Shown: positions 2,362 through 17,915 of the stretch, piece after piece
How positions within the stretch are numbered: the first letter of the stretch is position 1
Layout: every line of letters starts with the position of its first letter
Virus record (IMG/VR): IMGVR_UViG_3300033273_000208
Span: 1 to 64,000 of that record
Strand: one strand, 5' to 3'
DNA length: 64,000 bases
DNA from: a virus
Program-made: the position numbers and the translations under genes
The notes under the pieces: generated by a model
Seen by the model: the letters and a program-made list of their open reading frames with translations, nothing else
What the model was told of the DNA's origin: nothing
Database searches by the model: none

Positions 2362-2740
2362 AGAACTTAAAGTATCGTCAATCGATGAACTGTGGGATAA
2401 TCTTGCACTGCAACATGCAGTCAAGATGGAACAATACCTTGTAGCAAAGGGTCAACTGGATACTACTCTCGCCAACCCTGCATCTCAGGGAAGTGGTGTA
2501 ACATTTGATGTTAGAGAGATCCAAAACCTCCGCGATGAACTTGTAAAGATTGAGGGTGCACTTGATGCTCTGAATATCATCTACACTCAGATCGAGGGTA
2601 AAGAAGCACGCACATATGTTGTTGAACCTGAGCGTCCAGCACCTAAGGTAAGAGCGAAGGGTAGGGGCAAAGAGAAGTATAAAGAACTGGAAGAATGGGC
2701 ACCTGATGTTGATGCACCGAAGGTTGATACTGGTCTCTGA
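2354..2740 (+). CDS. Hypothetical coiled-coil protein
   Basis: ORF track 2342-2740; ATG at 2354 (MSEELK) preferred; coupled to both neighbours. Confidence 0.6.
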   Translation: MSEELKVSSIDELWDNLALQHAVKMEQYLVAKGQLDTTLANPASQGSGVTFDVREIQNLRDELVKIEGALDALNIIYTQIEGKEARTYVVEPERPAPKVRAKGRGKEKYKELEEWAPDVDAPKVDTGL

Positions 2741-3399
2741 TGATAAATCAAGAGTTGTTATTTCCTACACCAGTATGGTGGCAGGACTTTGATCTAGATA
2801 CTGATAAACTAACTGAAATATGCCATCAGATTCGTGATGAATATGATGGTCAAGTTAGATCTAATGTCGGTGGATATCAGTCCACCGATTTCAATGGCGA
2901 ACATCTATTGACTGTGGATGATGAGTTGGGTAAACTTGCTCATCATCTTACAGACATGGCAACACAAATCTACGCACGATTTGAACCACAAGGTACACAT
3001 GTGGAGATGGCAAATCTGTGGATCAATATCAATCATGGCAATGATTACAACGTCACTCATACACATCCTGGTTCTGTAATCTCTGGTGCATACTATGTCA
3101 CTGCACCAGAAGACGCAGGTAAGATTGTATTTGTGAAGGATCATTCCTCTGCATTTAACTTCTCATCCGTGGGAACAATGCAAGACTTTGCTGAAGGTGA
3201 AGGTGAACCATGGTTGTGGAATCAGTTTATGTACCCACCTGTCAAGAATAGGTGTATAATGTTCCCAGCATGGTTGCCACACAAAGTTGAACGAAGTGAG
3301 ACACAATCAGAACGTATCTCTATCTCATTCAACTTTGTACCTAGACAAAACCATGATAAAATAATGTATGGCATCGTGAAGAAGATCAATGAATGTTGA
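2740..3399 (+). CDS. 2OG-Fe(II) oxygenase, TIGR02466-like
   Basis: LFPTP N-terminus, HTHPG, SGAYY, FPAWLPH.V, RISISFN. Confidence 0.88.
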   Translation: MINQELLFPTPVWWQDFDLDTDKLTEICHQIRDEYDGQVRSNVGGYQSTDFNGEHLLTVDDELGKLAHHLTDMATQIYARFEPQGTHVEMANLWININHGNDYNVTHTHPGSVISGAYYVTAPEDAGKIVFVKDHSSAFNFSSVGTMQDFAEGEGEPWLWNQFMYPPVKNRCIMFPAWLPHKVERSETQSERISISFNFVPRQNHDKIMYGIVKKINEC

Positions 3400-4018
3400 G
3401 TTTCTATTTCCCACACCAGTCTGGCATGAAGATGTAAATGTCGATACTGATGCTCTGATTGCATTCAGTGTTGATTATATGCGTACTGAAAAGATGAACG
3501 GTGGTAGTTATGAATCAATGAATCTAACTGGTGCACAGTTCAGAGACAGTAAGTGTGTTGTTGGTAGTTTTGTCAGACAGGTGGAGGATAAAGCAAACGA
3601 AGCATTCCAAGACTTTGGTCCTCTGAATACATATGCTGAGATGGATCACTTCTGGTTCATTACAGTTCCACCAGGAGATCGTATGGCATTACATACACAT
3701 CCTGGTGCTGTGTTGTCTGGTGTTGTATATTTGTATGTGCCTGAAGGTGATGCTGGTTCTATCACTATTCGTAGAGATGCAACAACATCTCACCTCTATC
3801 ATTCTCTAGGTGCATACACATCATGCAATCGTGGTGACAATCAAATCACCTGGGACTCTGTAAGTTACGCTCCTGTTGTCAACAAGATGGTGCTATTTCC
3901 TGCATGGCAACCACACTCAGTATCACAGAATAATACTGACCAGGATCGCATCTCAGTGTCTTTTAACTTCCGCGTTAAGGAAGGTGTATACCCACATACG
4001 TCAAGATTATGGCAGTAG
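3389..4018 (+). CDS. 2OG-Fe(II) oxygenase, TIGR02466-like
   Basis: LFPTP, HTHPG, SGVVY, FPAWQPHSV, RISVSFN. Confidence 0.88.
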   Translation: MNVEFLFPTPVWHEDVNVDTDALIAFSVDYMRTEKMNGGSYESMNLTGAQFRDSKCVVGSFVRQVEDKANEAFQDFGPLNTYAEMDHFWFITVPPGDRMALHTHPGAVLSGVVYLYVPEGDAGSITIRRDATTSHLYHSLGAYTSCNRGDNQITWDSVSYAPVVNKMVLFPAWQPHSVSQNNTDQDRISVSFNFRVKEGVYPHTSRLWQ

Positions 4019-4698
4019 ATATTTACTATACATCTGTGATTCCCAAGAGGGACGAAGACTATCAGATCCCTACATTTGCTGAGGACTATGAAGTTCCACC
4101 TACACCAGCATACAATGATGGGATAAAGTCTCATGACCACATGTATTGTCCTGCCCACAAAGAGTGGTGTAAGAATAGATGGACATTTTACATGCCATTT
4201 GATCTACACTTCAGGTGCGACAGTGAGCATCGCATGATAGGATCAGATACACATGGAGATAAACTACAAGATCTGATTTCGATTGGTCCTAACTGGTGGG
4301 ATGATGAACTGCCAGAGATAGAAATCACATACAACACATTGTTTTGGACTAATACAAAGAATGTGTGGTTAGAGTATACTGGTCATCCCACAGTTGCACA
4401 GCATGGATTCAGTGTGGTGCCTGGCACATTTCCTATGTCATCATGGATGAGATCATTGCCTATTGGTGTCATTCCACATCGTATTGATGACGGTATCTAT
4501 ATCAAACGTGGTACACCCATCTTTCATGTTAAGTTTGTGCGAGGTAAAGATACATTCAAACTCACTAGAAAGACACCACCACCTGATAAGATAGTGCAAA
4601 TCAAACAGGATCAAGAACTCAAACACTGGGCACCATTTAAGTCCTGGGATCTAATCATGAAGAGGGAATCTAAATGTCCATTTCGTATCCGTTTCTGA
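4009..4698 (+). CDS. DUF6065-like hypothetical protein (paralog of 1639-2361)
   Basis: YCPA..W...WTFYMPFD, VVPG.FP.S.W.R, RGTPIFHV, C-terminal KCPF. Confidence 0.55.
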   Translation: MAVDIYYTSVIPKRDEDYQIPTFAEDYEVPPTPAYNDGIKSHDHMYCPAHKEWCKNRWTFYMPFDLHFRCDSEHRMIGSDTHGDKLQDLISIGPNWWDDELPEIEITYNTLFWTNTKNVWLEYTGHPTVAQHGFSVVPGTFPMSSWMRSLPIGVIPHRIDDGIYIKRGTPIFHVKFVRGKDTFKLTRKTPPPDKIVQIKQDQELKHWAPFKSWDLIMKRESKCPFRIRF

Positions 4699-5366
4699 AC
4701 CGTGAGCATTACGTCTGTGGTGACACACCGTTGTTATTCAAGGGTGTATGTGATGCACCTATACTCTATGTGGACTGGGAAGATGTTGAGCACTGCTTAA
4801 ACAATCCCTGGGAGTATAACATTGAGATTCTTGACAGCAATAACATCAAAGTTCCTATGCCCACTGTTCCTCACCCGTGGCATGGTAACTGGCATCCAGA
4901 CAAGAAAGTTATCATGGATCTTGTCAATGATAACCACACATTTGTGATTGCTAAGTATGGTCATCATAATGTTCATGTTAATGCATTGCTGCGTAGGATT
5001 GAGGATGCATTTGATGTAGCATGTGATGCACACATTTATGGTGCATTAGGTGGTGCAAGTTCATTCAAGATTCATTGGGATCAACCAGCAAACTTCATCA
5101 TGCAAATACATGGTGAGACACATTGGACAGTATATAATGAACGGTGTAGTACACTTGTCAAATATACTGGATTCCCCTATAATCCTAGTGAGGATGAAGT
5201 AACACCTGCAATCGATACGGTACTACAACCTGGAGACATGTTGTATATACCATCACGTTGTTATCATTGTGCTTGTCCTGATCAAGAACGACTGTCCCTA
5301 AGTATTCCTTGTTGGCATGATCCTGAGAACAAACCAGACAGAAATCAATACACACTTGATCTCTGA
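4674..5366 (+). CDS. JmjC/cupin-4 (ROX-like) 2OG oxygenase
   Basis: FKIHWD (HxD), FIMQIHGETHW, LQPGDMLYIPSRCYH. Confidence 0.85.
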   Translation: MSISYPFLNREHYVCGDTPLLFKGVCDAPILYVDWEDVEHCLNNPWEYNIEILDSNNIKVPMPTVPHPWHGNWHPDKKVIMDLVNDNHTFVIAKYGHHNVHVNALLRRIEDAFDVACDAHIYGALGGASSFKIHWDQPANFIMQIHGETHWTVYNERCSTLVKYTGFPYNPSEDEVTPAIDTVLQPGDMLYIPSRCYHCACPDQERLSLSIPCWHDPENKPDRNQYTLDL

Positions 5367-5853
5367 TGTAGCAACAAAAGAGATTGAACGTATAGTTACT
5401 GCTCCTGAGTTTCCCTGGTTTTATATACCTGATGCCACGGATCTTGTGCCTTCTGGTGGTGGTGCATTCATGCATCTATTGAAGATGGACTATGAGGTAC
5501 GATCACCATATTATGATCTATTTCATCTAGAGATCTGTAACTTTGCAAATCTCTATGGATATAGTCATGAGGATATATACCGTGCACGATTGGGTTTATT
5601 GTATCCCACCAAGAAGAAACATAACAAACCACATGTAGACTTCACTGATCCACATGATGTGATGTTGTGGTATATAACCAGTAACGATAAAGCACCCACA
5701 TTATTCTTCAATGACAGACTTGAAGAGATTCATCGTGTAGAATGTAGGCAGGGTCGTGTTGTGCATTTCCCTGGACATATGCTACACGCTTCAACACCAC
5801 CCAAGGATGGTATTCGTGTCGTTCTAAATGTAAATCTGAAGAGGTCAGTATGA
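5317..5853 (+). CDS. 2OG-Fe(II) oxygenase superfamily protein
   Basis: FPWFY, PHVD (HxD), GRVVHFPG..LHAS.P, RVVLNVN. Confidence 0.75.
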   Translation: MILRTNQTEINTHLISDVATKEIERIVTAPEFPWFYIPDATDLVPSGGGAFMHLLKMDYEVRSPYYDLFHLEICNFANLYGYSHEDIYRARLGLLYPTKKKHNKPHVDFTDPHDVMLWYITSNDKAPTLFFNDRLEEIHRVECRQGRVVHFPGHMLHASTPPKDGIRVVLNVNLKRSV

Positions 5854-6359
5854 TTACACAATGGTTTGATAGATCTAAGGGCGAGTGGCATTCACACCGC
5901 AGATATTTGTATGGTGAGAGTGCAGAACTCATGACCAGTGAACTACTCGTTGGTGACCTGAATGATGTTGAGAAAGCAGTCATTCCAGAAGATCTCAACA
6001 GTGACTATTATGTAAAGTTTGGATGGCAAACTGTTAAATATAGTTCAGGTGAACCTGCTTCATCTGGTGAGATGCTTGTCGGAATCAATAGTAAGGATGG
6101 GAAGATGTATCGCTCTCAAGGATACATGACCTCCAATCCCACCATGACTGATGTAACTATGATTGATGAGGATACTATCCTCTTTGATACGGAGTATGGA
6201 AAACAAAGATTTCGTGAAGAGATTCGACTCCTACACAATGACTCGGTAAGATTACGACAGACGATTGGTTTCAAGGGCAACCGTGTGACTATCGTCGGTC
6301 AATACTACGAAACTCGTAAGGAGAACGAGACCGATGTTCCTCAAGTCAGCACCACTTAG
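5850..6359 (+). CDS. Phycobiliprotein (bilin) lyase, CpcS/CpeS/CpcV family
   Basis: WF..S.GEWHSHRRY, YRSQGY....P, TEY...FREEIRL, RLRQTI match the S/U/V-type lyase beta-barrel pattern; closest by eye to the CpcV-like branch. Confidence 0.8.
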   Translation: MITQWFDRSKGEWHSHRRYLYGESAELMTSELLVGDLNDVEKAVIPEDLNSDYYVKFGWQTVKYSSGEPASSGEMLVGINSKDGKMYRSQGYMTSNPTMTDVTMIDEDTILFDTEYGKQRFREEIRLLHNDSVRLRQTIGFKGNRVTIVGQYYETRKENETDVPQVSTT

Positions 6360-6501
6360 CAAAGAGGCGAAAGGATTGCTCAAGAGAGCAATGTTATTGT
6401 TACTCTCTGACCTCTATAAGAGGCAGGGAGACATCAGTCCCAGACAACGTGATACAATACATGAGATTGTTACTACATTACATCTTGAACCCGAAGCATG
6501 A
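6334..6501 (+). CDS. Small hypothetical protein (55 aa)
   Basis: MFLKSAPLSKEAK...LEPEA*; fills the gap, ATGA-coupled to 6498. Confidence 0.55.
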   Translation: MFLKSAPLSKEAKGLLKRAMLLLLSDLYKRQGDISPRQRDTIHEIVTTLHLEPEA

Positions 6502-7106
6502 CTGTTTTCCCTATATTCTCCACACCTGTTTATGTTGACACCTATGATATTCCACAAGATGAAATAGATCTAATCAAACAGGAAGAATATAAGGATTATC
6601 CAAAGCGTGCAGATGGTATGCAGTCAGTGGATACACAACTCCTCAAGAGGTATCCGCGTCTGCATCACATCTGTCTGGGTCATATTGCCCACTATGCTCA
6701 CAATGTCCTCGCTATTGATGATCGAGTGACATGTGAGATTGTGTGTTCATGGGTCAACAAACACCGTCCTGGTGAGAGAGCAAACAGGCATGGACATACC
6801 AATAGTATGTTCACAGGTTGCCTGTATCTTGACGTGCCCGATGATAGTGGTAACATCATCTTTGAAGCATCATATAATCATGCCACATGGAACACAGGTA
6901 CACTCGAACCAGCAACATGGGAGGATAACATACTCAACTCACGCATCTGGCAGATTGTACCTGAGCGTGGCATGATTGTATGCTTCCCTGCACATGTAGA
7001 CCACTACACAGGATACAATGAGTCTACACAAGATAGATACTCATTAGGATTCAATGTAATGATGAAAGGTGACTTTAGTGCACCTACACGAGATTTGGTG
7101 TTATGA
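6498..7106 (+). CDS. 2OG-Fe(II) oxygenase, TIGR02466-like
   Basis: IFSTP, SWVN, HGHTNS, FPAHVDH, RYSLGFN. Confidence 0.88.
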   Translation: MTVFPIFSTPVYVDTYDIPQDEIDLIKQEEYKDYPKRADGMQSVDTQLLKRYPRLHHICLGHIAHYAHNVLAIDDRVTCEIVCSWVNKHRPGERANRHGHTNSMFTGCLYLDVPDDSGNIIFEASYNHATWNTGTLEPATWEDNILNSRIWQIVPERGMIVCFPAHVDHYTGYNESTQDRYSLGFNVMMKGDFSAPTRDLVL

Positions 7107-7735
7107 ACTTAGGTGAATACGATAGATCAGTCTTTCCACTGTTTAACAATCCACTCTATGTGTCTCGCAATGCTCCACTGTCTGCAGAGATAGTGGAATA
7201 TGTTGTTAATCAGGAGTATTATTCTGACCCACAAGAGAAGAATGGTGAGAATACTTCCAACCAAAGACTATTAGATGGATGCCCAGAGTTAAAGGCATTG
7301 GTTGAGAGACATCTGAATCACTATTTGTATAACATACTGTGCTTTGATAGGAAATATGTAGCACGTCATCATTGTTCGTGGGCAACTAGACACAAGACAG
7401 GTCATTCTGCTCACAAACATACACATTGCAACTCAATGTATAGTGGTGTGATATACATAAAAACGCCACCTAAATGTGGGGATATATTGTTTCACGCTGA
7501 TTGCAATCGTGACACATATACAACACCAGCAATGAGACCTGATATTGTTGAGCACAATATCTACAACTCAGCGTGTTGGTCTATACCTGCTGAAGAGGCA
7601 TTGATATTACTGTTTCCATCAACTGTGGAGCATAGTGTTGAACCCAACCGAAGTCTGTCGGATCGGTATAGTGTTGCGTTCAACTATTGGTTGCATGGAC
7701 AGTACGGCGACTGTACCAATAGGTTGACTATATGA
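7103..7735 (+). CDS. 2OG-Fe(II) oxygenase, TIGR02466-like
   Basis: LFNNP, HTHCNS, SGVIY, FPSTVEHSV, RYSVAFN. Confidence 0.88.
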   Translation: MNLGEYDRSVFPLFNNPLYVSRNAPLSAEIVEYVVNQEYYSDPQEKNGENTSNQRLLDGCPELKALVERHLNHYLYNILCFDRKYVARHHCSWATRHKTGHSAHKHTHCNSMYSGVIYIKTPPKCGDILFHADCNRDTYTTPAMRPDIVEHNIYNSACWSIPAEEALILLFPSTVEHSVEPNRSLSDRYSVAFNYWLHGQYGDCTNRLTI

Positions 7736-8067
7736 CGACACCTCTGCTAATCTCAGAGTCAGTTCCACTGGAGATCAGGAACATCATGAAGTCATTGGAG
7801 ATTGGATCACCTATCCGATATGATGGAATGGAAGGACATGTGTGCTTCGTTTGTGATTCCTACATTTCTATGTGCTTCCGTGAGTATGAACATGGTGACA
7901 AATCTGCTCGACATCCAACAACCAAGTGTTGTGTACTTATCTTTCAAGAGTTCTGGGATGAGATCGAGATTGACGACACCCACTTCTATAATAAGAAGGC
8001 ATACAATGGACTGATCCATGAACATCCTGGCAACGATATGCTACCCGAAGGAGAGCGCCCCAAATGA
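7732..8067 (+). CDS. Hypothetical Cys-rich protein
   Basis: 111-aa ORF with ATGA coupling at both ends. Confidence 0.6.
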   Translation: MTTPLLISESVPLEIRNIMKSLEIGSPIRYDGMEGHVCFVCDSYISMCFREYEHGDKSARHPTTKCCVLIFQEFWDEIEIDDTHFYNKKAYNGLIHEHPGNDMLPEGERPK

Positions 8068-8115
8068 ATACCAAAAAAGACCCACAAAAATCAACCAACA
8101 ATCTCCCCTCTGTTT

Positions 8116-8292
8116 ATGACATCAAACGCGAAGAAATACAACGTTATTTGGAAGAGACAGAAGAAGAAAGGGCATACTTCGACAGTTACAGCGACGTTCC
8201 TGACGCTAGTTGATGCTATTGAGTGGGAAAAGCACCTCAAGAAGAGTGGCGTGACAGTTTGCGAAGTGCACCCCGTTTTCACCGACTGGTGA
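8116..8292 (+). CDS. Small basic hypothetical protein (58 aa)
   Basis: MTSNAKKYNVIWKRQKKKGHTSTVTATF...W*; overlaps another short ORF 8064-8213. Confidence 0.5.
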   Translation: MTSNAKKYNVIWKRQKKKGHTSTVTATFLTLVDAIEWEKHLKKSGVTVCEVHPVFTDW

Positions 8293-8308
8293 GGTGTGGT
8301 AGTATATT
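8251..8308 (+). promoter_or_regulatory. Early promoter repeat 1
   Basis: GTGACA..GTGCAC; -10 TATATT begins 52 nt after the GTGACA start; upstream of helicase. Confidence 0.7.
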
Positions 8309-8332
8309 ATTTCTGTTGAGCGATCCACATAC

Positions 8333-9571
8333 ATGACCGTTGTTCTTCGTCCTCACCAAGATCGTGCCCTTGCAGCAATGCAAGTCAACGATAAAGGTCA
8401 AGTCATTGTTCCTACTGGCGGTGGCAAGACTTTCATTATGATTCAGGATGCACTGCGTCAACTGCAGCAATCTTCCACGATTGTTGTTGTTGCTCCTCGC
8501 ATTCTGCTTGCTACTCAACTGTGTGATGAGTTCATGCAGTTTGTTGACAGCAAGTATGTGCATGTATGTCATGCTCACAGTGGTGAAACTCATTACTTTC
8601 ACTCTACCAAGAGCAGCAAGATTGCTCTCTTCAACAACACCGCTCGTGCTGCAGGTGAGTCCTGCATTATCTTCACCACCTATCATTCGCTGGGTCGTGT
8701 AGTTGATGCAGGCATCAATATCAGTGCAGTGTACTTTGACGAGGCACACAATAGTGTTGCTAAGTCTTTCTTCGCCAGCACCTTTGCCATCTCTGATGTT
8801 GCAGAGCGTTGCTACTTCTTCACTGCTACTCCTCGCATCTCGCACAAGCATGAGCGTGGAATGCACAATCGTGAGGTGTATGGTACTGTTATCGAGAATG
8901 TTTCTGCTTCGGAACTGATTGCTAACGGTAGCATCATTCCCCCTCAGATTGTGCCATTCAACACGGATAACTCTCGCAACAAGGTCAACGCTCACGTTGT
9001 TGACAGTAACACTGTGCAGGATATCATCGACAATCTCGATGAGACTGCTGCTGCTAAAGTGTTGGTTGCAGTGCCATCCAGTCGTGTGCTAGGTAACATG
9101 ATCGGTCAGACTGATCTACTCCAACAACTCAAGGATCGTGGTTACCATGTTCTCCACGTCACCAGCAAGTTCGGTGCCTATGTAGACGACAAGAAAGTCA
9201 ATCGTGAGGTGTTCTTTGACACTCTCACCGCCTGGGGTGCAGATCCCACCAAGAAGTTTGTTATCTTCCACTATTCTATTCTGTCGGAAGGTATCAACGT
9301 TCCTGGTCTCACCCATTGCATTCTTCTGCGTAATCTCAACGTTGTTGAGATGGCACAGACAATCGGTCGTGTTATTCGTCTACATAAAGACGACGCTGCT
9401 GCTATTCGCAGCGGTGAACTCACCCCTGGTAAGTTTGACTTTTATAGGAAACCTTTCGGTTATGTGACTGTCCCTGTGCATCGCACATACGGTAAGCAAG
9501 TGACCAAGCGACTGCAGAATGTAGTTGATGCTATCTTCGTGAAAGGCATTCCTCCTCTGTCCCTCGTCTAA
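8333..9571 (+). CDS. SF2 DEAD/DEAH-box helicase (ResIII-like)
   Basis: PTGGGKT Walker A, YFDEAHN, FTAT, EGINVP, QTIGRVIR. Confidence 0.92.
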   Translation: MTVVLRPHQDRALAAMQVNDKGQVIVPTGGGKTFIMIQDALRQLQQSSTIVVVAPRILLATQLCDEFMQFVDSKYVHVCHAHSGETHYFHSTKSSKIALFNNTARAAGESCIIFTTYHSLGRVVDAGINISAVYFDEAHNSVAKSFFASTFAISDVAERCYFFTATPRISHKHERGMHNREVYGTVIENVSASELIANGSIIPPQIVPFNTDNSRNKVNAHVVDSNTVQDIIDNLDETAAAKVLVAVPSSRVLGNMIGQTDLLQQLKDRGYHVLHVTSKFGAYVDDKKVNREVFFDTLTAWGADPTKKFVIFHYSILSEGINVPGLTHCILLRNLNVVEMAQTIGRVIRLHKDDAAAIRSGELTPGKFDFYRKPFGYVTVPVHRTYGKQVTKRLQNVVDAIFVKGIPPLSLV

Positions 9572-9576
9572 ATCTA

Positions 9577-10068
9577 ATGCTTTACGATCAACCACCTGCA
9601 CCTGTATATCAGTGCGTTCAGTGTACTCCTGCCGAGCAGAAAACTCTAGCGTTTCTGCAAGATCGGGGTATTGTGAACAAGAATGCTCTCGCTACTGTGA
9701 TGGGTAACATCAAACAGGAGAGCAACTTTAACCCTCTCGTTTGTGAGGGTGGGGCAAACACTGGTTATCAGCGTTGCACTCGTGGAGGATTTGGTCTCAT
9801 TCAGTGGACTACGGAAGCAAGATACCTGGGTCTGGGTCGTTTCTGCAGGAAGAATAGTTGCAACGTCAACTCTCTTGAGGGACAACTGCGGTACATGTGG
9901 AATGAACAACAGTTCCAAACTCTCATTCCTAAGTTAAAGACACCAGGCAAAACCATCCCACAATATATGAATGACTCATGGTATTGGTTAGGGTGGGGTA
10001 TCCATGGCAATCGTACCCACTATGCATATCAATACCATCGAAAGATGGAACTGAAATATGTAATGTGA
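9577..10068 (+). CDS. Phage tail lysozyme family (Phage_lysozyme2) protein
   Basis: GNIKQESNF (catalytic Glu), GFGLIQWT, GQLRYM..E. Confidence 0.8.
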   Translation: MLYDQPPAPVYQCVQCTPAEQKTLAFLQDRGIVNKNALATVMGNIKQESNFNPLVCEGGANTGYQRCTRGGFGLIQWTTEARYLGLGRFCRKNSCNVNSLEGQLRYMWNEQQFQTLIPKLKTPGKTIPQYMNDSWYWLGWGIHGNRTHYAYQYHRKMELKYVM

Positions 10069-10124
10069 CAATCCAATAACCTTCACACGGGGCAGCGTTG
10101 CTGCCCCGTTTCTGTGTGTATAAT
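10065..10124 (+). promoter_or_regulatory. Early promoter repeat 2 with internal hairpin
   Basis: GTGACA at 10065; 10-bp stem ACGGGGCAGC/GCTGCCCCGT 10087-10109; TATAAT 10119-10124. Confidence 0.7.
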
Positions 10125-10149
10125 GAAGAGGTCCAAACGACACAAGACA

Positions 10150-10665
10150 ATGGCAGGCGGCATTCAGAAAGGCATGGTTGCTACTGATGCACATGCACGC
10201 AAACTTGACAACCAATGTAAAGTCCTCAAAGAGGAGATTGCAGACGTTTTGCAATACACTGGTGTGACATTACAGAAAAAACTGAAGAAGAATCAAATCC
10301 CTGGTGGTAAGGGTGCTTGCGAACCTGATGGTGGCGCATGGTTCTACAAAGGCAAACTGATTGCAGTGTTTGAAGGTAAGAAACAGCAGGACGCTGGTAA
10401 TGCTATCGAACGCTGGTTCAAGAACAACTACATCTGCCGCAAGATTAACCCTGATGTGTCATACGTCACCTTTGCAATCGGTGATGGTGCATACTCTGAT
10501 GGTGTGATCGGTAAGGCACTCAACGTTGCACATCTTGATGGGTTTGATACATATAATGCTGGTGGCAACTCTTGCTTCTTTAACACTCAAGGTTTTACAA
10601 AAGAAGAGATCCGTGCTATCATGATTAAAGTCCTTGCAGAGCGTATTCAGAATGAGGATAGTTGA
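10150..10665 (+). CDS. EcoRI-like PD-(D/E)xK restriction endonuclease homolog
   Basis: EPDGG...FEGK catalytic motif and AGNAIERWFKN, matching EcoRI KPDGG...AEAK...AGNAIERSHKN; ATG 10150 lies downstream of promoter repeat 2. Confidence 0.82.
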   Translation: MAGGIQKGMVATDAHARKLDNQCKVLKEEIADVLQYTGVTLQKKLKKNQIPGGKGACEPDGGAWFYKGKLIAVFEGKKQQDAGNAIERWFKNNYICRKINPDVSYVTFAIGDGAYSDGVIGKALNVAHLDGFDTYNAGGNSCFFNTQGFTKEEIRAIMIKVLAERIQNEDS

Positions 10666-11221
10666 CAACTACTTTCCACAATGGATGGTGGATAAGAATG
10701 CAGAAGAGTTCCAACTTATACCCGTAACTTATACCAACTCACCCTACGGTCAGTATGAAGTGAGTCGGTTCTTTGGTCAGTTACTTATCGATGAGGAGCG
10801 ATGGATTGCACCTATCGCCCCTCATTGGTTTGTGGACTATTTGCATATGTGTGTATGCAATGATCTCTTGTTGGACTATAAAATCCAAAAACTTGATCGC
10901 TGCCTGCTGAACGTGCAAACACCTGGGCAGAACGCCCAAAGTCACACGGATTGGGATGTTCTAAAGGAAAGCGACAGAATCAGTGGTCTGTATTACATCA
11001 GAGGCGATGGTGACACTCTATTTGTTAATGAACAGGGTGATACTATGAGTGTTGAGTGCAAACCAGGGCGATTAGTGCTGTTTGACAGTACAATATGGCA
11101 TGAGGGTTGTCCTCCTGTGAGTGAACCTATTCGATACACTCTCGGGTATGTCTGGAAGTGTGCCAGTCCACTCTCTGTCCACGATCCCCAGGATTTGTGC
11201 AACCCTGTGCCTATACTATGA
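10652..11221 (+). CDS. 2OG-Fe(II) oxygenase superfamily protein
   Basis: RIVDNYF, HTD (HxD), GDTLF, PGRLVLFDS.IWH.G.PP, RYTL. Confidence 0.8.
   Translation: MRIVDNYFPQWMVDKNAEEFQLIPVTYTNSPYGQYEVSRFFGQLLIDEERWIAPIAPHWFVDYLHMCVCNDLLLDYKIQKLDRCLLNVQTPGQNAQSHTDWDVLKESDRISGLYYIRGDGDTLFVNEQGDTMSVECKPGRLVLFDSTIWHEGCPPVSEPIRYTLGYVWKCASPLSVHDPQDLCNPVPIL
11160..11217 (+). promoter_or_regulatory. Early promoter repeat 3 (inside 3' end of oxygenase gene)
   Basis: GTGCCA..TGTCCAC; -10 TATACT at +52. Confidence 0.7.
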
Positions 11222-11243
11222 GGGTACCAAACAAGGACACCAA

Positions 11244-11426
11244 ATGTACGGAATCCGCCCCGCTCGTTACACCATCGAGGAACTGGTTGCACAGTCCCGC
11301 AATACTATCCGCAACGTGGAAAGTGTCACTCAACCCCAACCGATCGTGTGGTGCTCAACTAACGGTCGCTATGTTGTGAACCCTGAGTTTGCACAGTGGA
11401 AGAACGGTAAGTTCCAAGAAGTGTGA
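11244..11426 (+). CDS. Small hypothetical protein (60 aa)
   Basis: MYGIRPARY..., AAGGA RBS, downstream of promoter repeat 3. Confidence 0.6.
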   Translation: MYGIRPARYTIEELVAQSRNTIRNVESVTQPQPIVWCSTNGRYVVNPEFAQWKNGKFQEV

Positions 11427-11433
11427 TAGAATA

Positions 11434-11483
11434 TGGGGAAATCATTAAGAATGTCCTGATTTCCCCACTTTCATGCTTAAATA
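11434..11483 (+). promoter_or_regulatory. Inverted repeat followed by late-promoter-like TAAATA
   Basis: TGGGGAAATCA (11434-11444) / TGATTTCCCCA (11457-11467), then CTTAAATA. Confidence 0.45.
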
Positions 11484-11505
11484 CTATTAACTTCGCAAGA
11501 TAAGC

Positions 11506-11697
11506 ATGGATTGGAGCAGCACCACAAAACAACAGAAACGTAAGGATGCATTTCACATCTTTTACGAAAGTGTGTTGAAACCCGATCATGAACTCCGTCA
11601 GGATGCTCATGAACAACAATGTTATCATGAGTTGTTAGAATGGAGGGGCGAAATCATCGCTTATCTCGATAAGCGTCGCAACGAAGAGTTTAACTAA
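11506..11697 (+). CDS. Hypothetical protein
   Basis: 63-aa ORF, TAATG coupling. Confidence 0.65.
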   Translation: MDWSSTTKQQKRKDAFHIFYESVLKPDHELRQDAHEQQCYHELLEWRGEIIAYLDKRRNEEFN

Positions 11698-11930
11698 TGA
11701 CCCAACACTTTACATGCACATCCACTGAACCATATGATCGCCATTGGTATAAAGTATGGTGCAAAGATAACACATGTAAAGTGTTTCAATCATATGATGA
11801 AGTCTTGACCGTTTATTGGAACTTTCACCAACACATTTCTCATGTCGAAGTCATTGACCCCAGACCAGAATCCGAAGGAGGATTTGCAACTAACACCCGA
11901 AGACGACGGTCTAAGGGTAAGCGAAAATGA
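11697..11930 (+). CDS. Hypothetical protein
   Basis: 77-aa ORF (FTCTS.EPYDRH.Y), basic tail. Confidence 0.6.
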   Translation: MTQHFTCTSTEPYDRHWYKVWCKDNTCKVFQSYDEVLTVYWNFHQHISHVEVIDPRPESEGGFATNTRRRRSKGKRK

Positions 11931-12096
11931 AGATGGAACTTTACAAATAGAGTGGGATCCTAATGATGCACGTTGGTCTATGTTCAATGACTTCACTGAG
12001 CAAGACTTCATCGACATGGTTACATCCTATTGCAAGACAGTTCTAGATGAACATGGTGTAGATTATTCTGACATCATTGAGGAAGATGAACTGTGA
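11842..12096 (+). CDS. Acidic hypothetical protein
   Basis: 84-aa ORF (NEDGTLQIEWDPND.RW); overlaps previous ORF by 89 nt. Confidence 0.6.
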   Translation: MSKSLTPDQNPKEDLQLTPEDDGLRVSENEDGTLQIEWDPNDARWSMFNDFTEQDFIDMVTSYCKTVLDEHGVDYSDIIEEDEL

Positions 12097-12263
12097 TCAC
12101 AGCATACATTGCATCTCTCACATTTGCATTAGGTGGAGCACTTGGTTTTAAGGTAGGTGTATTCCTTGGATGGAAATGGGGTGCAGATGATGAACGTTAT
12201 GTTGCATCCAAACTTAGACAACAAGCAGCACACGAGTTAGTTATCAAAGACCCATGGCAATAG
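12093..12263 (+). CDS. Small membrane protein
   Basis: GTG start, MITAYIASLTFALGGALGFKVGVFLGW hydrophobic helix; GTGA coupling. Confidence 0.55.
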   Translation: MITAYIASLTFALGGALGFKVGVFLGWKWGADDERYVASKLRQQAAHELVIKDPWQ

Positions 12264-12469
12264 TAGTAAGACAGAAACGTCCAGTTGAACAAACATGGGA
12301 CTTTGATGATATTGACAGTGCTAAAGAGTTCGCTTACAATCAATACCACGAGAAAAGAGAACTGGTCACCGTGGAGATTGATGGTGCTATTGTGTGCCTA
12401 TTCAGTGATCCAGATCCAAATCTATCAAACGCTGACTCACACCTAGACTACAGGAATCAAACACTATGA
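12254..12469 (+). CDS. Hypothetical protein
   Basis: 71-aa coupled ORF. Confidence 0.55.
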   Translation: MAIVVRQKRPVEQTWDFDDIDSAKEFAYNQYHEKRELVTVEIDGAIVCLFSDPDPNLSNADSHLDYRNQTL

Positions 12470-12711
12470 CACCCCGCCGCCTCACAATCCGCCAACTCAA
12501 CATCATTCTAGATTCACTCGCATCGTATCATCTAGAGGTTGAATCCTTTGACAATGATGAACTGGTTTCAGAAGTGTGGGATACGATTGATCTCATCGGT
12601 AACTATCGTGAGTGGATGATGCATCAATCGATCACGGATAACAGTGACATTGATGTACCTTACGATGAGATCACTAAGTTCTTCGAGGTGGGTGAGATTG
12701 GTGCACCATAA
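12466..12711 (+). CDS. Acidic hypothetical protein
   Basis: 81-aa ORF, ATGA coupling. Confidence 0.6.
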   Translation: MTPRRLTIRQLNIILDSLASYHLEVESFDNDELVSEVWDTIDLIGNYREWMMHQSITDNSDIDVPYDEITKFFEVGEIGAP

Positions 12712-12744
12712 TATCTATTTGCCCCATCGACCCTCTATGCCCCC

Positions 12745-12802
12745 GTGACAGTCGGCAAAGCGGTCTACAGGCGCTTGTGGACGCCTCTCAGGCGTGTATT
12801 AT
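12745..12802 (+). promoter_or_regulatory. Early promoter repeat 4
   Basis: GTGACA..GTCTAC; -10 TATTAT at +52. Confidence 0.7.
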
Positions 12803-12826
12803 TAAAGAGTCAAAGGAACGCACCTC

Positions 12827-13099
12827 ATGCAACTTTCCAACTCCGTCTGCATCGTTGACTTCTTCCCCGAGGCATTTATTGCCGAGGCATGTGAAGAAAA
12901 GGGTGTAAAGACTGTCGTCAAGCGTTTTATCAAGCGTGTGACTTTCCCTTCTGATTATGGCAAAGCACAGCAATCTTGGTCTGTTGTTACTGCTCTCACC
13001 TTCTCCAATGAGGTCGCTGAGCGTATTGCTAACGGCGCTGTGGTTACTGGTTTCAACACTGAAAAGTGCCCTGACTCCTATACTCCTTGCTTCTGCTGA
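12827..13099 (+). CDS. Hypothetical early protein
   Basis: 90-aa ORF with AAGGA RBS after promoter repeat 4. Confidence 0.7.
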   Translation: MQLSNSVCIVDFFPEAFIAEACEEKGVKTVVKRFIKRVTFPSDYGKAQQSWSVVTALTFSNEVAERIANGAVVTGFNTEKCPDSYTPCFC

Positions 13100-13101
13100 T
13101 C

Positions 13102-13359
13102 ATGTTCCCCATTTATATCCAGCAACCCCCATCTGTGGGGTTCGCTGTTGATGAGATTCCCGTTGAGATTGTTCAGTATTGTGCTGACTTTACTCAACTC
13201 AATCCCTACGATCAATACAACAAAATGGAGCAAGATCTCCGTTTAGTTGACTGTTACTGGATGCATCTTGGTTATTATGGAACTCCTGCAAACATTATGG
13301 AAGAAGTTCGACGCGAACATTTCCGCACTCGTCCACCTCTACGTCCTGTCTTTGATTGA
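13102..13359 (+). CDS. Hypothetical protein
   Basis: ORF track 13087-13359; ATG 13102 (MFPIY) preferred. Confidence 0.55.
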   Translation: MFPIYIQQPPSVGFAVDEIPVEIVQYCADFTQLNPYDQYNKMEQDLRLVDCYWMHLGYYGTPANIMEEVRREHFRTRPPLRPVFD

Positions 13360-13484
13360 TGCCTGACACTTACACTTTCACTGGTGATGCTGTTACCTTC
13401 CTTGGTTTGGTTGGTGTTACTTCGGCGTTTATCATTGTTGTTACTGCTTTCCGTCGTTTCTTCAACTCTCCTTACAACAAGTGA
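13359..13484 (+). CDS. Small membrane peptide (41 aa)
   Basis: MPDTYTFTGDAVTFLGLVGVTSAFIIVVTAFRRFFNSPYNK*; coupled on both sides. Confidence 0.6.
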   Translation: MPDTYTFTGDAVTFLGLVGVTSAFIIVVTAFRRFFNSPYNK

Positions 13485-13693
13485 GCACTACAGTTTCTAA
13501 AGTCTTCAACGCGATTGATTTCACTGATAGTGAAGCAAACTGCTTGCTTCATTTCTTACAACAAGCACAAGAATGTGGGTATCCTAGTGCTAACGAACCC
13601 TACTACCCCACGATTAACACAATCCTGAACAAATACTACACCGAACTCAACAACCAAGAGCAAAACTGCACGTTTCGTGAGTATGACTACTGA
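13481..13693 (+). CDS. Hypothetical protein
   Basis: 70-aa ORF, GTGA coupling. Confidence 0.55.
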   Translation: MSTTVSKVFNAIDFTDSEANCLLHFLQQAQECGYPSANEPYYPTINTILNKYYTELNNQEQNCTFREYDY

Positions 13694-13901
13694 ATACACT
13701 AGAGAACAACTTATCGATGCATTATGTGCAGAGTGGGATTATCTCTGCCATGATGATTTCGATCCTGATGTAGATCCCACGACAGAAGAGTATCGTGAAG
13801 ATCTCAACAACTATACTCTCGAACAGTTAATCGCAGAAACGAATACTGACGAGGATGGTTACACTCTCACCGAATACATGGAGAACTATGGATGTAGTTA
13901 A
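13683..13901 (+). CDS. Highly acidic hypothetical protein
   Basis: MTTEYTREQLIDALCAEWDYLCHDD...; ORF track 13677-13901. Confidence 0.65.
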   Translation: MTTEYTREQLIDALCAEWDYLCHDDFDPDVDPTTEEYREDLNNYTLEQLIAETNTDEDGYTLTEYMENYGCS

Positions 13902-13974
13902 TGCTTCACTGATTGCAACTGGTTTGTTGACTCTTGGTGGTCTAATCCTGTTTTTCAAAGTAATCTATCGGTAG
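13888..13974 (+). CDS. Possible membrane micropeptide (28 aa)
   Basis: MDVVNASLIATGLLTLGGLILFFKVIYR*, GGAG RBS. Confidence 0.4.
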   Translation: MDVVNASLIATGLLTLGGLILFFKVIYR

Positions 13975-13980
13975 GGTAGT

Positions 13981-14039
13981 GTGCCAGTTGGTCAAACCGT
14001 CCACCATCGCTTGATTTCCGCACCAATCGGTGCAATACT
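13981..14039 (+). promoter_or_regulatory. Early promoter repeat 5
   Basis: GTGCCAGTTGG..AAACCGTCCAC, TTGATT-N17-AATACT. Confidence 0.75.
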
Positions 14040-14063
14040 ATGAGAGTTAAAGAAAGCAACGCA

Positions 14064-14333
14064 ATGCAACTCCTCCCAAACGCAGTCACGACCGCAACCT
14101 ATCGTCGTGAGACCCGTTTTTTCTTCGATGATGATACCTCTGCGAGCGAGTTCAAGACCATCAAGAAACTGACCTCTTTTCCTGATTCTGGTGATGTCCG
14201 CCGCCGCACTTTGCGTGAGTGGCAGGAAATGAACCCCTCCATCGTTCGTATCACTTTCAAGGACACTCCTGTCCTGGTTGATAACACTCCCGACGAGATT
14301 ACCCGTTTCAAAGTAGCAAACCTCTCCCGATGA
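14064..14333 (+). CDS. Hypothetical early protein
   Basis: MQLLPNAV...; ORF track 14040-14333. Confidence 0.6.
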   Translation: MQLLPNAVTTATYRRETRFFFDDDTSASEFKTIKKLTSFPDSGDVRRRTLREWQEMNPSIVRITFKDTPVLVDNTPDEITRFKVANLSR

Positions 14334-14470
14334 TTACACAACAAGACCGTGAGTTTGTTGACTTTTTGTTTAGCAAACTCACGAAGCATGTTGACACCGA
14401 CATGATAGATTTGCAGGATGATGATACCTGCTGTGACCATCTTAACTTTCAACAACTCGAACTCTTCTGA
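14330..14470 (+). CDS. Small acidic protein ending in QQLELF (46 aa)
   Basis: MITQQDREFVDFLFSKLTKHVDTDMIDLQDDDTCCDHLNFQQLELF*; ATGA coupling. Confidence 0.6.
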   Translation: MITQQDREFVDFLFSKLTKHVDTDMIDLQDDDTCCDHLNFQQLELF

Positions 14471-14491
14471 ACACTCTTAACTAACACTCTC

Positions 14492-14752
14492 ATGCTTAAG
14501 AAAGTCTCCGAGTCTAAACAAACACCTTCACCAGTTATTGTCAACAAAGGAAAGCATGGATACAACTGCTGGGTGTATGTAAGCACGATTCAGAAGAATC
14601 AAAACACTTACCATAAGTATAAAGTTGCCAACAAGTTTGGCAAGAAGTTTGTATCTAAAAAGGATGCACTTATGTACGGTTGGGCAACAATCAACGGACA
14701 CGATGTTTCAACCTATGATGTACCAATGCGACACAAACCAGTCGCTCGCTGA
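14492..14752 (+). CDS. Basic hypothetical protein
   Basis: 86-aa Lys-rich ORF. Confidence 0.55.
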   Translation: MLKKVSESKQTPSPVIVNKGKHGYNCWVYVSTIQKNQNTYHKYKVANKFGKKFVSKKDALMYGWATINGHDVSTYDVPMRHKPVAR

Positions 14753-14756
14753 CGGT

Positions 14757-14829
14757 GTGACAGTTCCTCAGGTGGTTTCTCGGTTTTGTATCACCACGAA
14801 CTACCTGGGTCTGGCATCTCGTGTATCTT
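14757..14829 (+). promoter_or_regulatory. Early promoter repeat 6 (longer spacing)
   Basis: GTGACAGTT; -10 region TCGTGTATCTTAGA identical to repeat 7. Confidence 0.6.
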
Positions 14830-14835
14830 AGAAAC

Positions 14836-15084
14836 ATGGAAAACAACCAAACCGACATGACCATCACTCCCGCATTCATCGATGCTCTCGATAGCGTGCA
14901 GGCGTTCTGTCTTGACATGAACCCCGACATCGATATGGCATACGATTACGTCTGCGAGCAGGCAGGAATCGACTCCTTTGTTTGCAACAATGCTGCATGG
15001 GATATGTTCTACGATGTGTGGGAAAAGATCATGGATGACAACAATGTCCCTGATCATGTTCGTGCTGGTGACTATCGCTACTGA
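14836..15084 (+). CDS. Acidic hypothetical protein
   Basis: ORF track 14821-15084; ATG 14836 or 14857. Confidence 0.6.
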   Translation: MENNQTDMTITPAFIDALDSVQAFCLDMNPDIDMAYDYVCEQAGIDSFVCNNAAWDMFYDVWEKIMDDNNVPDHVRAGDYRY

Positions 15085-15121
15085 TTCACGACTTTCTCAC
15101 ACTAACCCCACTCAAATCATC

Positions 15122-15319
15122 ATGAATCGTTACTGCATCGAAGTTGACCGCATTGAACGTGATGGCAGCATTTTCCACCTCGTTCAATATAGGGAACTGA
15201 AACCCACTAAATCACTCTGGGCACACAAACTGCAGTTGGAAAAACTCACTAATCGCATTGCTGAGGAACTCAAATACTATCAAGTTCCTTACAAACGCTA
15301 TAGCGTGAGCATGGCGTAA
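15122..15319 (+). CDS. Hypothetical protein
   Basis: MNRYCIEVDRIE...; ORF track 14978-15319. Confidence 0.55.
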   Translation: MNRYCIEVDRIERDGSIFHLVQYRELKPTKSLWAHKLQLEKLTNRIAEELKYYQVPYKRYSVSMA

Positions 15320-15537
15320 TGCCTCCCAAATACGACGCAAACTGGTTCACTAACTACAACAAAACAATGGCAACTTACAACCCCTACGTTGATACCCTCG
15401 TCGAGATGGGTTACGATCGCACTGACTGCCAGATGGCAGGTCGTGATGCTACCTATCCTCGTACGATTCACGGTCGTGTTTTTAACACCAAAGAAGAGTA
15501 CGATGAGGCACTCGCTGACTTTATCAACGGTCTCTGA
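15319..15537 (+). CDS. Hypothetical protein
   Basis: 72-aa ORF, TAATG coupling; start may be 15367. Confidence 0.55.
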   Translation: MPPKYDANWFTNYNKTMATYNPYVDTLVEMGYDRTDCQMAGRDATYPRTIHGRVFNTKEEYDEALADFINGL

Positions 15538-15545
15538 TTAACATC

Positions 15546-15707
15546 ATGCGAATCATTCTTGCTTCAGTAGTTGTAATCTTTGGCAGCATGATTGGTCTTG
15601 CTGCTATCAACTCAGTCTCTCAAATGCAGGACGCTAAGATGACACGATTCTGCAAACAAATCCCCGTAGGCGCATCCTACGATGAAATGTGCGCTAAGTA
15701 TCGTTAA
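15546..15707 (+). CDS. Small membrane-anchored or secreted protein (53 aa)
   Basis: MRIILASVVVIFGSMIGLAAINS... with a Cys pair. Confidence 0.55.
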   Translation: MRIILASVVVIFGSMIGLAAINSVSQMQDAKMTRFCKQIPVGASYDEMCAKYR

Positions 15708-15747
15708 TCACGCGCAACACTAACTAACAACAATCACACACACAATC

Positions 15748-15969
15748 ATGGACCGCTCTGAAATCCAACGCCAATATGTTGACTGCATCGTTGATGGCAT
15801 GGACCTTGACGATTGCTTGGCACTGTTAAAAGATTGCCTCAATGCTGACCTGGAAGTGTATAGTGACAAGGAACTGATTGAAGAGGTTAATCAATACTAT
15901 CCTCACCTGATTGAAGAGGATAGTGAAGAGAATAGTGAGGAACCAAGCGAAGCGACGGGTTGGCAGTGA
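15748..15969 (+). CDS. Highly acidic hypothetical protein
   Basis: 73-aa Asp/Glu-rich ORF. Confidence 0.65.
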   Translation: MDRSEIQRQYVDCIVDGMDLDDCLALLKDCLNADLEVYSDKELIEEVNQYYPHLIEEDSEENSEEPSEATGWQ

Positions 15970-16023
15970 CAGTTGGACAAACCGTCCACTATCACCGCAC
16001 AGACCCCTAAGATCGTGTATCTT
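15966..16023 (+). promoter_or_regulatory. Early promoter repeat 7
   Basis: GTGACAGTTGG..AAACCGTCCAC; -10 TATCTT at +52. Confidence 0.75.
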
Positions 16024-16140
16024 AGAGAAGTGGAGGGGAACAGGACACCCGATCATCACTCCTAGCGAGTCAGTTGGCAACTCTACTGCTGATGATAAAC
16101 TCCACTTTTTCCTAACACTTTTCACCTCTCTTTTCTCATC

Positions 16141-16473
16141 ATGCGTAAAATCGAGCAGGCAATGAACACCGCCATCGCTAACAACGACAACTGGCAATCT
16201 GGCAATACTTCTGTTCACTTTAACGAGGAAGAAAACCTCTCCGTTGTGCGTCTGCACGGCAACAAGATTGCCGAGATCGGTGAGGGTTTCATCCGCCTCT
16301 TTGACGGCGGTTGGCAATCCAACACCACCAAATCTCGTCTGAATGCTATTCTCTCTGAGCACGGAGAATGTGGTGATAAAGTATTCGCAAAGGACTTCGA
16401 TTGGTTCCTGCAAATGAATACTGCCCAAGGTCTTTCTGTTGTTCCTTTCTTCTCTTCGATGCGCCTGGGTTGA
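16141..16473 (+). CDS. Phage hypothetical protein
   Basis: 110 aa, VRLHGNKIA / DGGWQSNTTKSRLNA. Confidence 0.75.
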   Translation: MRKIEQAMNTAIANNDNWQSGNTSVHFNEEENLSVVRLHGNKIAEIGEGFIRLFDGGWQSNTTKSRLNAILSEHGECGDKVFAKDFDWFLQMNTAQGLSVVPFFSSMRLG

Positions 16474-16658
16474 TGTTGAAAGCACTCAACAAATCTCGTT
16501 CCGCTAACTACTATGCGAATCAAGTGAAAGTATTGCTTTTGATTGTAATCGGCGTCCTTATCTATCACTCACAGGACGCCCGATTCTTTATCTCTGACCG
16601 CCTTCAGGATGCATCAGAGTTTATTCGTCCCGAACCCAATCTTCAGTTTCGTTATTGA
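16473..16658 (+). CDS. Small membrane protein
   Basis: MLKALNKS...VKVLLLIVIGVLIY; TGATG coupling. Confidence 0.5.
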   Translation: MLKALNKSRSANYYANQVKVLLLIVIGVLIYHSQDARFFISDRLQDASEFIRPEPNLQFRY

Positions 16659-16660
16659 TC

Positions 16661-17074
16661 ATGCTTGAGACTCTGACTAACACTCCCATCAACACATTGA
16701 TCTGCTGTTTGTGTGAAGCACTGGACCAACATTATCGTCTTTACACTGTAAAATCCTTCCGCCGTCGTGTTTCCTCAGGCAACGATGATACGGGGTATTT
16801 CCAACGTCAACTGGATGCAATCCGCAATGATCAGTATGATTGGAACATTTCTTTCGATGTAGAGGAAGGACGCAAGTATGCTAAGATTATAATGACTCAG
16901 AGCGGATCACGTTCTGTTCATGCTTTCATAGATATGAAGACGGGTGACGTATATAAACCCGCATCCTTTTCTAAACCTGCCAAAGGTGTACGTTACAACC
17001 TGTTTGACAAGAACTCCCGTGAAGAGTGTTATCGTCGAGCAGATTGGGCAGGTGATTATCTCTATCTTCGCTGA
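16661..17074 (+). CDS. Phage hypothetical protein
   Basis: GRKYAKI...SVHAFID.KTGDVYKPAS...PAKGVRYNL; ORF track 16655-17074. Confidence 0.75.
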   Translation: MLETLTNTPINTLICCLCEALDQHYRLYTVKSFRRRVSSGNDDTGYFQRQLDAIRNDQYDWNISFDVEEGRKYAKIIMTQSGSRSVHAFIDMKTGDVYKPASFSKPAKGVRYNLFDKNSREECYRRADWAGDYLYLR

Positions 17075-17077
17075 TTC

Positions 17078-17722: not shown

Positions 17723-17733
17723 GAGACGCGCAG

Positions 17734-17768: not shown

Positions 17769-17915
17769 CTGTGTATTTTAGAAATGCTTCAAAAAACATA
17801 CATTAGTGCTCTATAGTTCGTGTTAATGTGTGTGGTTATTGTTGCCTCGGACTGTAACACATTGACAGCGAGTTGGCAACACTCCCAGGACATTTCTGAA
17901 ACCCTCACAAACCCC

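Follow-up and report, generated by a model that had tools for sequence, protein, structure and literature searches.

A predicted minimal EcoRI-fold endonuclease without a linked methylase in the AATT-free sampled genome of a marine cyanomyovirus

An uncultured marine T4-like cyanomyovirus carries a short gene, P0001, whose predicted product resembles the restriction endonuclease EcoRI, and the sampled DNA of this phage contains no copy of the tetranucleotide AATT. The gene lies in a stretch of 64,000 nucleotides, referred to here as the window, which is part of an IMG/VR virus record (IMGVR_UViG_3300033273_000208) of 73,883 bp that is estimated to be 41% complete. The closest isolates are S-SZBM1 and S-WAM1, with about 73% nucleotide identity in the helicase gene. 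An earlier note on this DNA had described a 171-amino-acid (aa) open reading frame (ORF) with the motifs PDGG...EGK and AGNAIER..KN, and had proposed an orphan EcoRI-like enzyme that attacks host or competing phage DNA and spares a phage that has purged AATT. The ORF was confirmed at 10150-10665 on the plus strand, with both motifs as described. In the reading that we consider probable, P0001 would be an AATT-specific type II nuclease that was retained without a methylase, the phage being protected by the absence of sites. The features of the locus are as follows.

10150..10665, plus strand: nuclease gene P0001, predicted to encode a minimal EcoRI-fold endonuclease of 171 aa (from the ORF, its translation and PHROG family phrog_2400)
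10324..10380, plus strand: putative catalytic PD...E-x-K motif (P59-D60, E75, K77; Q79), from the profile alignment to EcoRI
10396..10425, plus strand: putative recognition segment G83-N-A-I-E-R88-W-F-K-N92, aligned to EcoRI G140-N149
1..64000, no strand: AATT-free genome background, the proposed self-protection (from word counts)
10087..10109, plus strand: intrinsic-terminator-like hairpin of 10 pairs, 8 of them G-C, with a loop of 3 and a T-rich tail
10119..10124, plus strand: perfect TATAAT hexamer, candidate -10 element of the nuclease gene's own promoter, read from the sequence
8333-9571: helicase gene, upstream neighbour
9577-10068: phage-tail-lysozyme-like gene (PF18013, phrog_512), between the helicase and the nuclease
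About 10634-11221: 2OG-Fe(II) oxygenase gene, downstream neighbour

The nuclease gene, its predicted fold and its locus

P0001 belongs to PHROG family phrog_2400, which is annotated as of 'unknown function' (expectation value, E, 4.5e-80). The protein alone found no match in Pfam (no PF02963 at E <= 1) or NCBIfam, a phmmer search of the PDB returned chance matches only, and a profile built from 22 close homologues did not reach EcoRI in the PDB. A library-wide search identified 229 clusters of the nuclease family at 50% identity, nearly all of them of 160-200 aa. When a profile of 50 diverse representatives of this family was compared with the PDB, EcoRI was the sole match (E 3.4e-9). The Pfam family of EcoRI (PF02963) has no match in the contig at E <= 10, with the gathering threshold not reached, and it weakly matches 4 of the 22 close homologues (best E 0.011) and 5 of the 50 representatives (best E 0.00037). 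The MunI family (PF11407, RestrictionMunI) likewise has no match in the contig at E <= 10. A search of genome contigs for related loci gave one doubtful bacterial locus.

Structure prediction points the same way as the family profile. The AlphaFold (AF2) model of P0001 has a mean predicted local distance difference test score (pLDDT) of 81, and its top five Foldseek matches are all EcoRI (E 1.5e-5 to 2.8e-4). In VIA, the model aligns to EcoRI 32-268 with Z 13.1-13.7 and a root-mean-square deviation of 2.7-2.8 A over 150-151 of its 171 residues; the next-best family is SgrAI, with Z 8.1. On these models, P0001 is predicted to be a true, stripped-down EcoRI-fold nuclease of the EcoRI-like superfamily, in the alpha branch of the PD-(D/E)XK enzymes.

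The residues on which an EcoRI-like activity would depend are present. The motifs read C-E-P-D60-G-G, E75-G-K77-K-Q79-Q and G83-N-A-I-E-R88-W-F-K-N92. The profile alignment places D60, E75, K77 and Q79 on EcoRI D91, E111, K113 and Q115, and these four positions are conserved in at least 90% of the 50 representatives. G83 to R88 align to EcoRI G140 to R145, and G83, N84 and R88 are invariant among the representatives. EcoRI uses Asn141, Ala142 and Arg145 to read the A-T pairs at the centre of AATT, its arms contact the backbone outside the recognition site, and its star activity relaxes the specificity to N/AATTN (PMC4081073). The premise of the earlier note that the GNAIER segment of EcoRI reads the inner AATT is therefore sound. 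Its remark that the stretch between the catalytic residues and GNAIER is shortened also holds: K77 and G83 are separated by 5 residues, as opposed to 26 between EcoRI K113 and G140, and EcoRI residues about 117-137, which form the inner arm, have no counterpart in the nuclease family.

P0001 may act as a dimer. Its homodimer model scored 0.66, compared with 0.00 for the best of three controls, a pass that may reflect likeness rather than binding because the EcoRI dimer has already been solved. In calibration, 20 of 30 proteins solved as one-chain pairs attained the mark, as did 1 of 23 solved as single chains. Agreement between runs covers at least 94% of contacts, the partner pLDDT is at least 75, and the predicted interface uses residues 84-98, which correspond to the recognition helix.

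With EcoRI (type IIP, G^AATTC; PDB 1ERI, 1CKQ and 2OXV; PF02963), P0001 shares the alpha/beta PD-(D/E)XK core, the PD...E-x-K-x-Q catalytic strand and the G-N-A-I-E-R-x-x-K-N segment, and in its model it also dimerizes through the recognition helices. It differs in size, as the earlier note had stated (277 aa for EcoRI, with chains of 261-277 aa, versus 171), and only about 17% of the sequence is identical. P0001 lacks the inner arm and a large part of the C-terminal outer region of EcoRI, and its probable site would be AATT without the outer G-C pair.

The gene begins with an ATG at 10150 and ends with a stop codon at 10663-10665. This ATG is the likely start, since the in-frame GTG at 10114 and ATG at 10123 overlap the TATAAT hexamer and several homologues start with M-A/T-G-G-I-Q. 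Upstream, the strong terminator-like hairpin closes a unit of the helicase and lysozyme-like genes ahead of the nuclease gene. The TATAAT follows this hairpin and sits 26 nt before the nuclease ATG. A promoter of its own is thus plausible for the nuclease gene from the sequence. The earlier note had assigned it an 'own early promoter'; a full sigma-70 promoter was not called there by a consensus scan. In S-WAM1, the nearest cultured relative (L144:24663-26512), the helicase gene directly abuts the 2OG-Fe(II) oxygenase gene, which indicates that the lysozyme-like gene and the nuclease gene fill a variable cassette slot in the window. A seawater DNA sequencing run covers the whole stretch. Metatranscriptome contigs (at least 90% likeness) span the lysozyme-like gene, with ends at about 10026 and about 10077, and the oxygenase gene, and leave out the nuclease body; such contigs show neither absence nor level, so the gap says nothing about expression of the nuclease.

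AATT and the methylase in the orphan lineage and in other carriers

AATT does not occur in the window, where 207-351 copies are expected under three background models, or in the whole contig (about 402 expected). Two IMG/VR sister contigs of 111,864 and 89,959 bp, which derive from one phage that is about 63% sampled, are about 86% identical to the window contig and also contain no AATT (599 and 482 expected). The nuclease of the sister phage is 95% identical to P0001. The claim that the phage had purged AATT is thus borne out in the window, in the contig and in the sister phage. About 14% of bases differ between the two orphan phages, and half or more of their TTAA, ATAT and TAAT sites have turned over; for TTAA, 70 sites are shared and 58 and 80 are specific to one lineage or the other. 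AATT was gained in neither phage, and a naive estimate predicts about 180 new sites.

The avoidance is visible in codon usage. The asparagine codon AAT never precedes T (0 of 223) and is used in 747 of 1691 cases before other bases. The isoleucine codon ATT never follows A (0 of 221), and G is the last base of every glutamate, lysine and glutamine codon that precedes TTx (215 to 0). No context-dependent codon rule of this AATT-avoiding kind was found in S-WAM1. Such a context-dependent choice among synonymous codons indicates that selection acts on the DNA word AATT itself. The nuclease protein is maintained as well. Comparison of the two orphan phages gives a ratio of nonsynonymous to synonymous substitution rates (dN/dS) of 0.09 (dS 0.30, dN 0.028), the catalytic residues are all intact, and the orphan nuclease is kept under purifying selection. 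Among other words in the window, GATC is in excess (365 observed and 246 expected from base composition, an observed-to-expected ratio of about 1.5), as is TGCA (ratio 1.95).

No methylase gene was found with the nuclease in the sampled DNA of these phages. Five methyltransferase families (D12, N6_N4, C5, N6_Mtase and EcoRI_methylase) have no match in the 73,883-bp contig or in the 111,864-bp sister contig, which extends the earlier note's report of no methyltransferase in the window. The sampled DNA of the window lineage thus encodes the nuclease without the cognate methyltransferase that characterizes a type II restriction-modification (R-M) system.

The situation differs in most relatives. 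The other carriers that were compared comprise 46 IMG/VR loci and 39 metagenome loci, with some duplicates among them. A Dam-family (D12-class N6-adenine) methylase gene lies downstream of the nuclease gene in roughly 70 of these about 85 loci, at a distance of 10-20 bp to about 1.5 kb, and the same linkage is present in S-RIM2 and S-CREM2. Among 50,697 phage genomes, the nuclease is found in 65 records and the linked methylase subfamily in 64 (E <= 1e-30); both occur in the genomes of S-RIM2 and S-BM1. None of 70 related loci that lack the nuclease gene contains this methylase subfamily. The earlier proposal of a restriction system without a modification partner therefore stands for the sampled DNA of this lineage, and must be amended for the family, in which a Dam-family methylase is linked to the nuclease in most relatives.

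A quick maximum-likelihood tree of 64 nuclease sequences contains 53 methylase-linked rows, which include all of the deepest branches. The methylase-less sequences fall into two separate clades, the window lineage (support 97) and a second type represented by locus L027 (support 100). With the linkage in relatives, this tree points to the methylase-less nuclease as a derived state of a family that is normally an R-M pair.

The linked methylases are closest to M.DpnIIA and EcoDam. In EcoDam, R124 contacts the guanine of the fourth GATC pair, and the R124A variant methylates GATT and GATG faster than GATC (PMC4417163). Every linked methylase has Q at the R124 position (motif F-N-G-I-Y-Q-L-N), so the nuclease-methylase pair is unlikely to be specific for GATC. 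The linked methylases (L007:10516-11367, L001:7678-8529 and about 40 more) also have G-T-P-[AS]-G in place of F-N-V-P-F-G. An unlinked D12 methylase of a gene-less relative retains Arg at the R124 position. These substitutions suggest that the linked methylase has a respecified target, probably AATT. The partner in the phage cassette is of the Dam family (D12) rather than of the M.EcoRI type.

The cassette varies among isolates of S-RIM2 (L001:6614-7669 compared with KX349240). In some, the nuclease and methylase genes lie 18 bp apart, and in others they are separated by an inserted phrog_2558 gene of 351 aa that weakly matches DUF6551. In S-CREM2 (L002:3290-5899), the homologue was deposited as 'restriction endonuclease EcoRI'. 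It adjoins a gene deposited as a Cas9-like virion protein and lies near a pyrimidine-dimer glycosylase gene; these annotations are taken as deposited.

Competing explanations for the loss of AATT

The gene-less loci, 70 in number and about 1 Mb in total, are from related cyanomyoviruses and were anchored on the neighbouring helicase gene. Relative to a mononucleotide expectation, their AATT content has a median of 0.73 (range 0.39-1.08), and S-WAM1 holds 221 copies versus 314 expected. The 45 carriers analysed as R+M+, with nuclease and methylase, have a median of 0.26 (range 0.00-0.81); the difference between carriers and gene-less loci has a Mann-Whitney p of 4e-16, uncorrected for relatedness. 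Depletion is thus graded from the gene-less loci through the R+M+ carriers to zero in the methylase-less window lineage. When all 4-mers were contrasted, AATT was the most depleted in carriers versus non-carriers (0.30 vs 0.75, ratio 0.40), CTAG followed with a ratio of 0.67, and no 4-mer but AATT dropped to zero in the orphan lineage specifically. Depletion in carriers extends to all ten NAATTN classes (ratios 0.24-0.74), as expected for a 4-bp site. The earlier note had held that equal avoidance in gene-less relatives would point to a host enzyme. The gene-less relatives do not share the avoidance to an equal degree, and AATT emerges as the word that is linked to the nuclease family.

The alternative that survives best, although we regard it as unlikely, is that the loss of AATT was imposed externally, for example by host AATT-specific restriction. 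The nuclease would then be unrelated to AATT, or would have become affordable after the sites were lost. Two other words show that such a process is conceivable. CCGG is absent from the contig (about 200 expected), its observed-to-expected ratio is 0.001 over about 1 Mb of the 70 related loci (L065-L134), and S-WAM1 (L144) has 0 of 114 expected. RGCY (AGCT, GGCC, GGCT/AGCC) stands at about 0.03-0.06 across the clade. Both words are purged irrespective of the presence of the EcoRI-like gene, and so the total loss of a 4-mer can have other causes. A second subgroup of phages, described below, also keeps the nuclease without a nearby methylase and without AATT avoidance. On the other hand, total loss of AATT is seen only in the lineage that has the nuclease and lacks the methylase, methylase-bearing carriers fall in between, and no other word is as strongly depleted in carriers relative to non-carriers. 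The enzyme also keeps the residues with which EcoRI reads AATT. In a variant of this explanation, host pressure would have preceded the loss of the methylase, and the mechanism operating today would be that of the favoured reading. Of the RGCY sites, 58 remain in the contig, every one of them beyond position 20240; none lies in the cassette-rich first 20 kb (about 260 expected).

Several points weigh against the favoured reading of an AATT-specific nuclease from which the phage is protected by lack of sites. One is the purge of CCGG and RGCY just described, which occurs independently of the gene. P0001 itself reaches no Pfam threshold, and we infer the AATT specificity of the nuclease from statistics and homology. 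A methylase may possibly lie in the unsampled part of the genome (the contig represents about 41% and the sister about 63%), though it would have no sites to protect. The remaining points come from the second methylase-less subgroup (L027, L035 and L145-L150), which forms one clade. In these loci AATT stands at 0.65-1.4 of expectation, and the nuclease gene itself, of about 534 bp, holds 5-11 copies, an enrichment. No D12 methylase was found in them from -6.3 to +21.6 kb, in contigs that are all fragments of at most 46.6 kb. The nuclease of this type has intact motifs and a dN/dS of 0.05-0.10. These phages may have a methylase farther away or some other DNA modification. AATT is just as undepleted in some methylase-linked carriers (0.73-0.85), and the L027 subgroup would therefore fit if a methylase acts in trans. 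The interpretation given in the earlier note is partly supported, and this subgroup with normal AATT does not fit it simply.

A gene of the DUF6267/phrog_455 family lies directly after the nuclease gene in the second subgroup (L027:1797-3277) and just after the methylase gene in several other carriers. DUF6267 was considered as a third cassette gene or a substitute protector and was rejected as not specific to the cassette, because it occurs in 460 phage records versus 65 for the nuclease. It has no sequence match in the PDB, and its single-sequence model has a pLDDT of 29.5.

A second alternative is that P0001 is no longer a double-strand restriction enzyme. It could have become a nickase, a regulator that binds DNA, a nuclease of repair or recombination, or a selfish cassette-homing nuclease, for none of which self-protection would be needed. 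Its position in a hypervariable cassette region, where S-WAM1 has the helicase followed directly by the oxygenase, would suit such a role, as would the tolerance of AATT in the L027 subgroup. We consider this improbable, since the catalytic residues D, E and K are invariant, as is the recognition motif, dN/dS is low (0.09), and the dimer is predicted to be symmetric and, as in EcoRI, to involve the recognition helices. A harmless protein would also not explain zero AATT in two phages that are 14% diverged.

The last alternative, that the cassette targets another site such as GATC, with the orphan guarded by an unlinked methylase in the unsampled DNA and the lack of AATT coincidental, agrees with the likeness of the linked methylases to two GATC enzymes and with the sampling of only 41-63% of the genome, but it is very improbable, and GATC was rejected as the cassette target, because the G-reading Arg124 is replaced by Q in every linked methylase, GATC is undepleted in carriers and in the window (ratios 1.0-1.8), 112 kb of the sister phage contain no D12 methylase, the nuclease is EcoRI-like, and no 4-mer except AATT separates carriers from non-carriers.

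Proposed mechanism and its place among known systems

In the favoured reading, the gene would encode a restriction endonuclease of the EcoRI lineage that is type IIP-like and acts as a homodimer. The enzyme has no inner arm and few of the outer parts of EcoRI, and it would most likely recognise bare AATT, as MluCI and Tsp509I do. In most carrier cyanomyoviruses, it would form a two-gene R-M cassette with a Dam-family N6-adenine methylase, which has lost the arginine that Dam uses to read the G-C pair in GATC. The sampled DNA of the window lineage has no such methylase and retains the nuclease under purifying selection, and selection at the DNA level would keep the phage genome fully AATT-free. 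Since this genome has no AATT, the nuclease could not cut it; the enzyme would spare its own genome and could cut any AATT-bearing DNA in the infected cell. Its target may be host DNA, the DNA of co-infecting rival phages, or both. We infer both the enzymatic activity of P0001 and the timing of its expression. As to the order of events, loss of sites before loss of the methylase and the reverse would both be compatible with this mechanism.

In textbooks, a type II restriction enzyme is paired with a methylase. MluCI, Tsp509I, Sse9I and MunI are bacterial enzymes with cognate methylases. The first three (type IIP, ^AATT) have the same tetranucleotide as the predicted specificity of P0001. A protein-language-model search returned a 174-aa bacterial cluster annotated with a MunI domain (score 0.92), which is a lead only. 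EcoRI, MunI (C^AATTG) and MluCI have been named together as a possible case of mosaicism (PMC4081073). P0001 itself would be a relative of EcoRI, MunI or MluCI; the new part would be the methylase-less arrangement in a site-purged genome.

Nucleases of Chlorella viruses have a role in the degradation of host DNA, and endonucleases II and IV of T4 act likewise. Chlorella-virus R-M systems (e.g., CviAII and CviJI) and the T4 enzymes thus resemble the proposed system in that viral nucleases attack host DNA and the virus's own genome is exempt. The means of exemption differ: Chlorella viruses and T4 protect their DNA chemically, by site methylation or hydroxymethyl-cytosine, whereas the protection proposed here would be purely informational. 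Phages that avoid the restriction sites of host enzymes show the same genome-wide counter-selection of a short palindrome by way of synonymous codons. Unlike such host-driven avoidance, the avoided word here tracks the phage's own nuclease, and depletion is graded by the presence of the methylase. According to one review, a methylase almost always accompanies a type IIP enzyme, restriction endonucleases are rare on phages, and Chlorella viruses encode type II restriction endonucleases and methyltransferases (PMC4081073). In the literature searched, we found no description of a phage type II nuclease without a methylase in a site-purged genome.

If true, this arrangement would be a new solution to the problem of self and non-self, in which a virus keeps the nuclease, drops the methylase and rewrites its genome to omit the target word. 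It would provide a mechanism by which cyanophages without modified bases degrade host DNA or exclude competitors, and it would explain an extreme oligonucleotide bias by a cause that is encoded by the phage and not by the host. A 171-aa enzyme of the EcoRI lineage would also be useful for studies of the change from a 6-bp to a 4-bp reader. A broader reading, which we offer tentatively, is that a lytic cyanophage carries a 4-bp cutter and no methylase, distinguishes self from non-self by one missing tetranucleotide, and shreds the DNA of its host, of rival phages or of both early in infection; the erasure of CCGG and RGCY may then reflect further nucleases of this kind. If that reading holds, 'restriction without modification' would be a general weapon of T4-like cyanophages.

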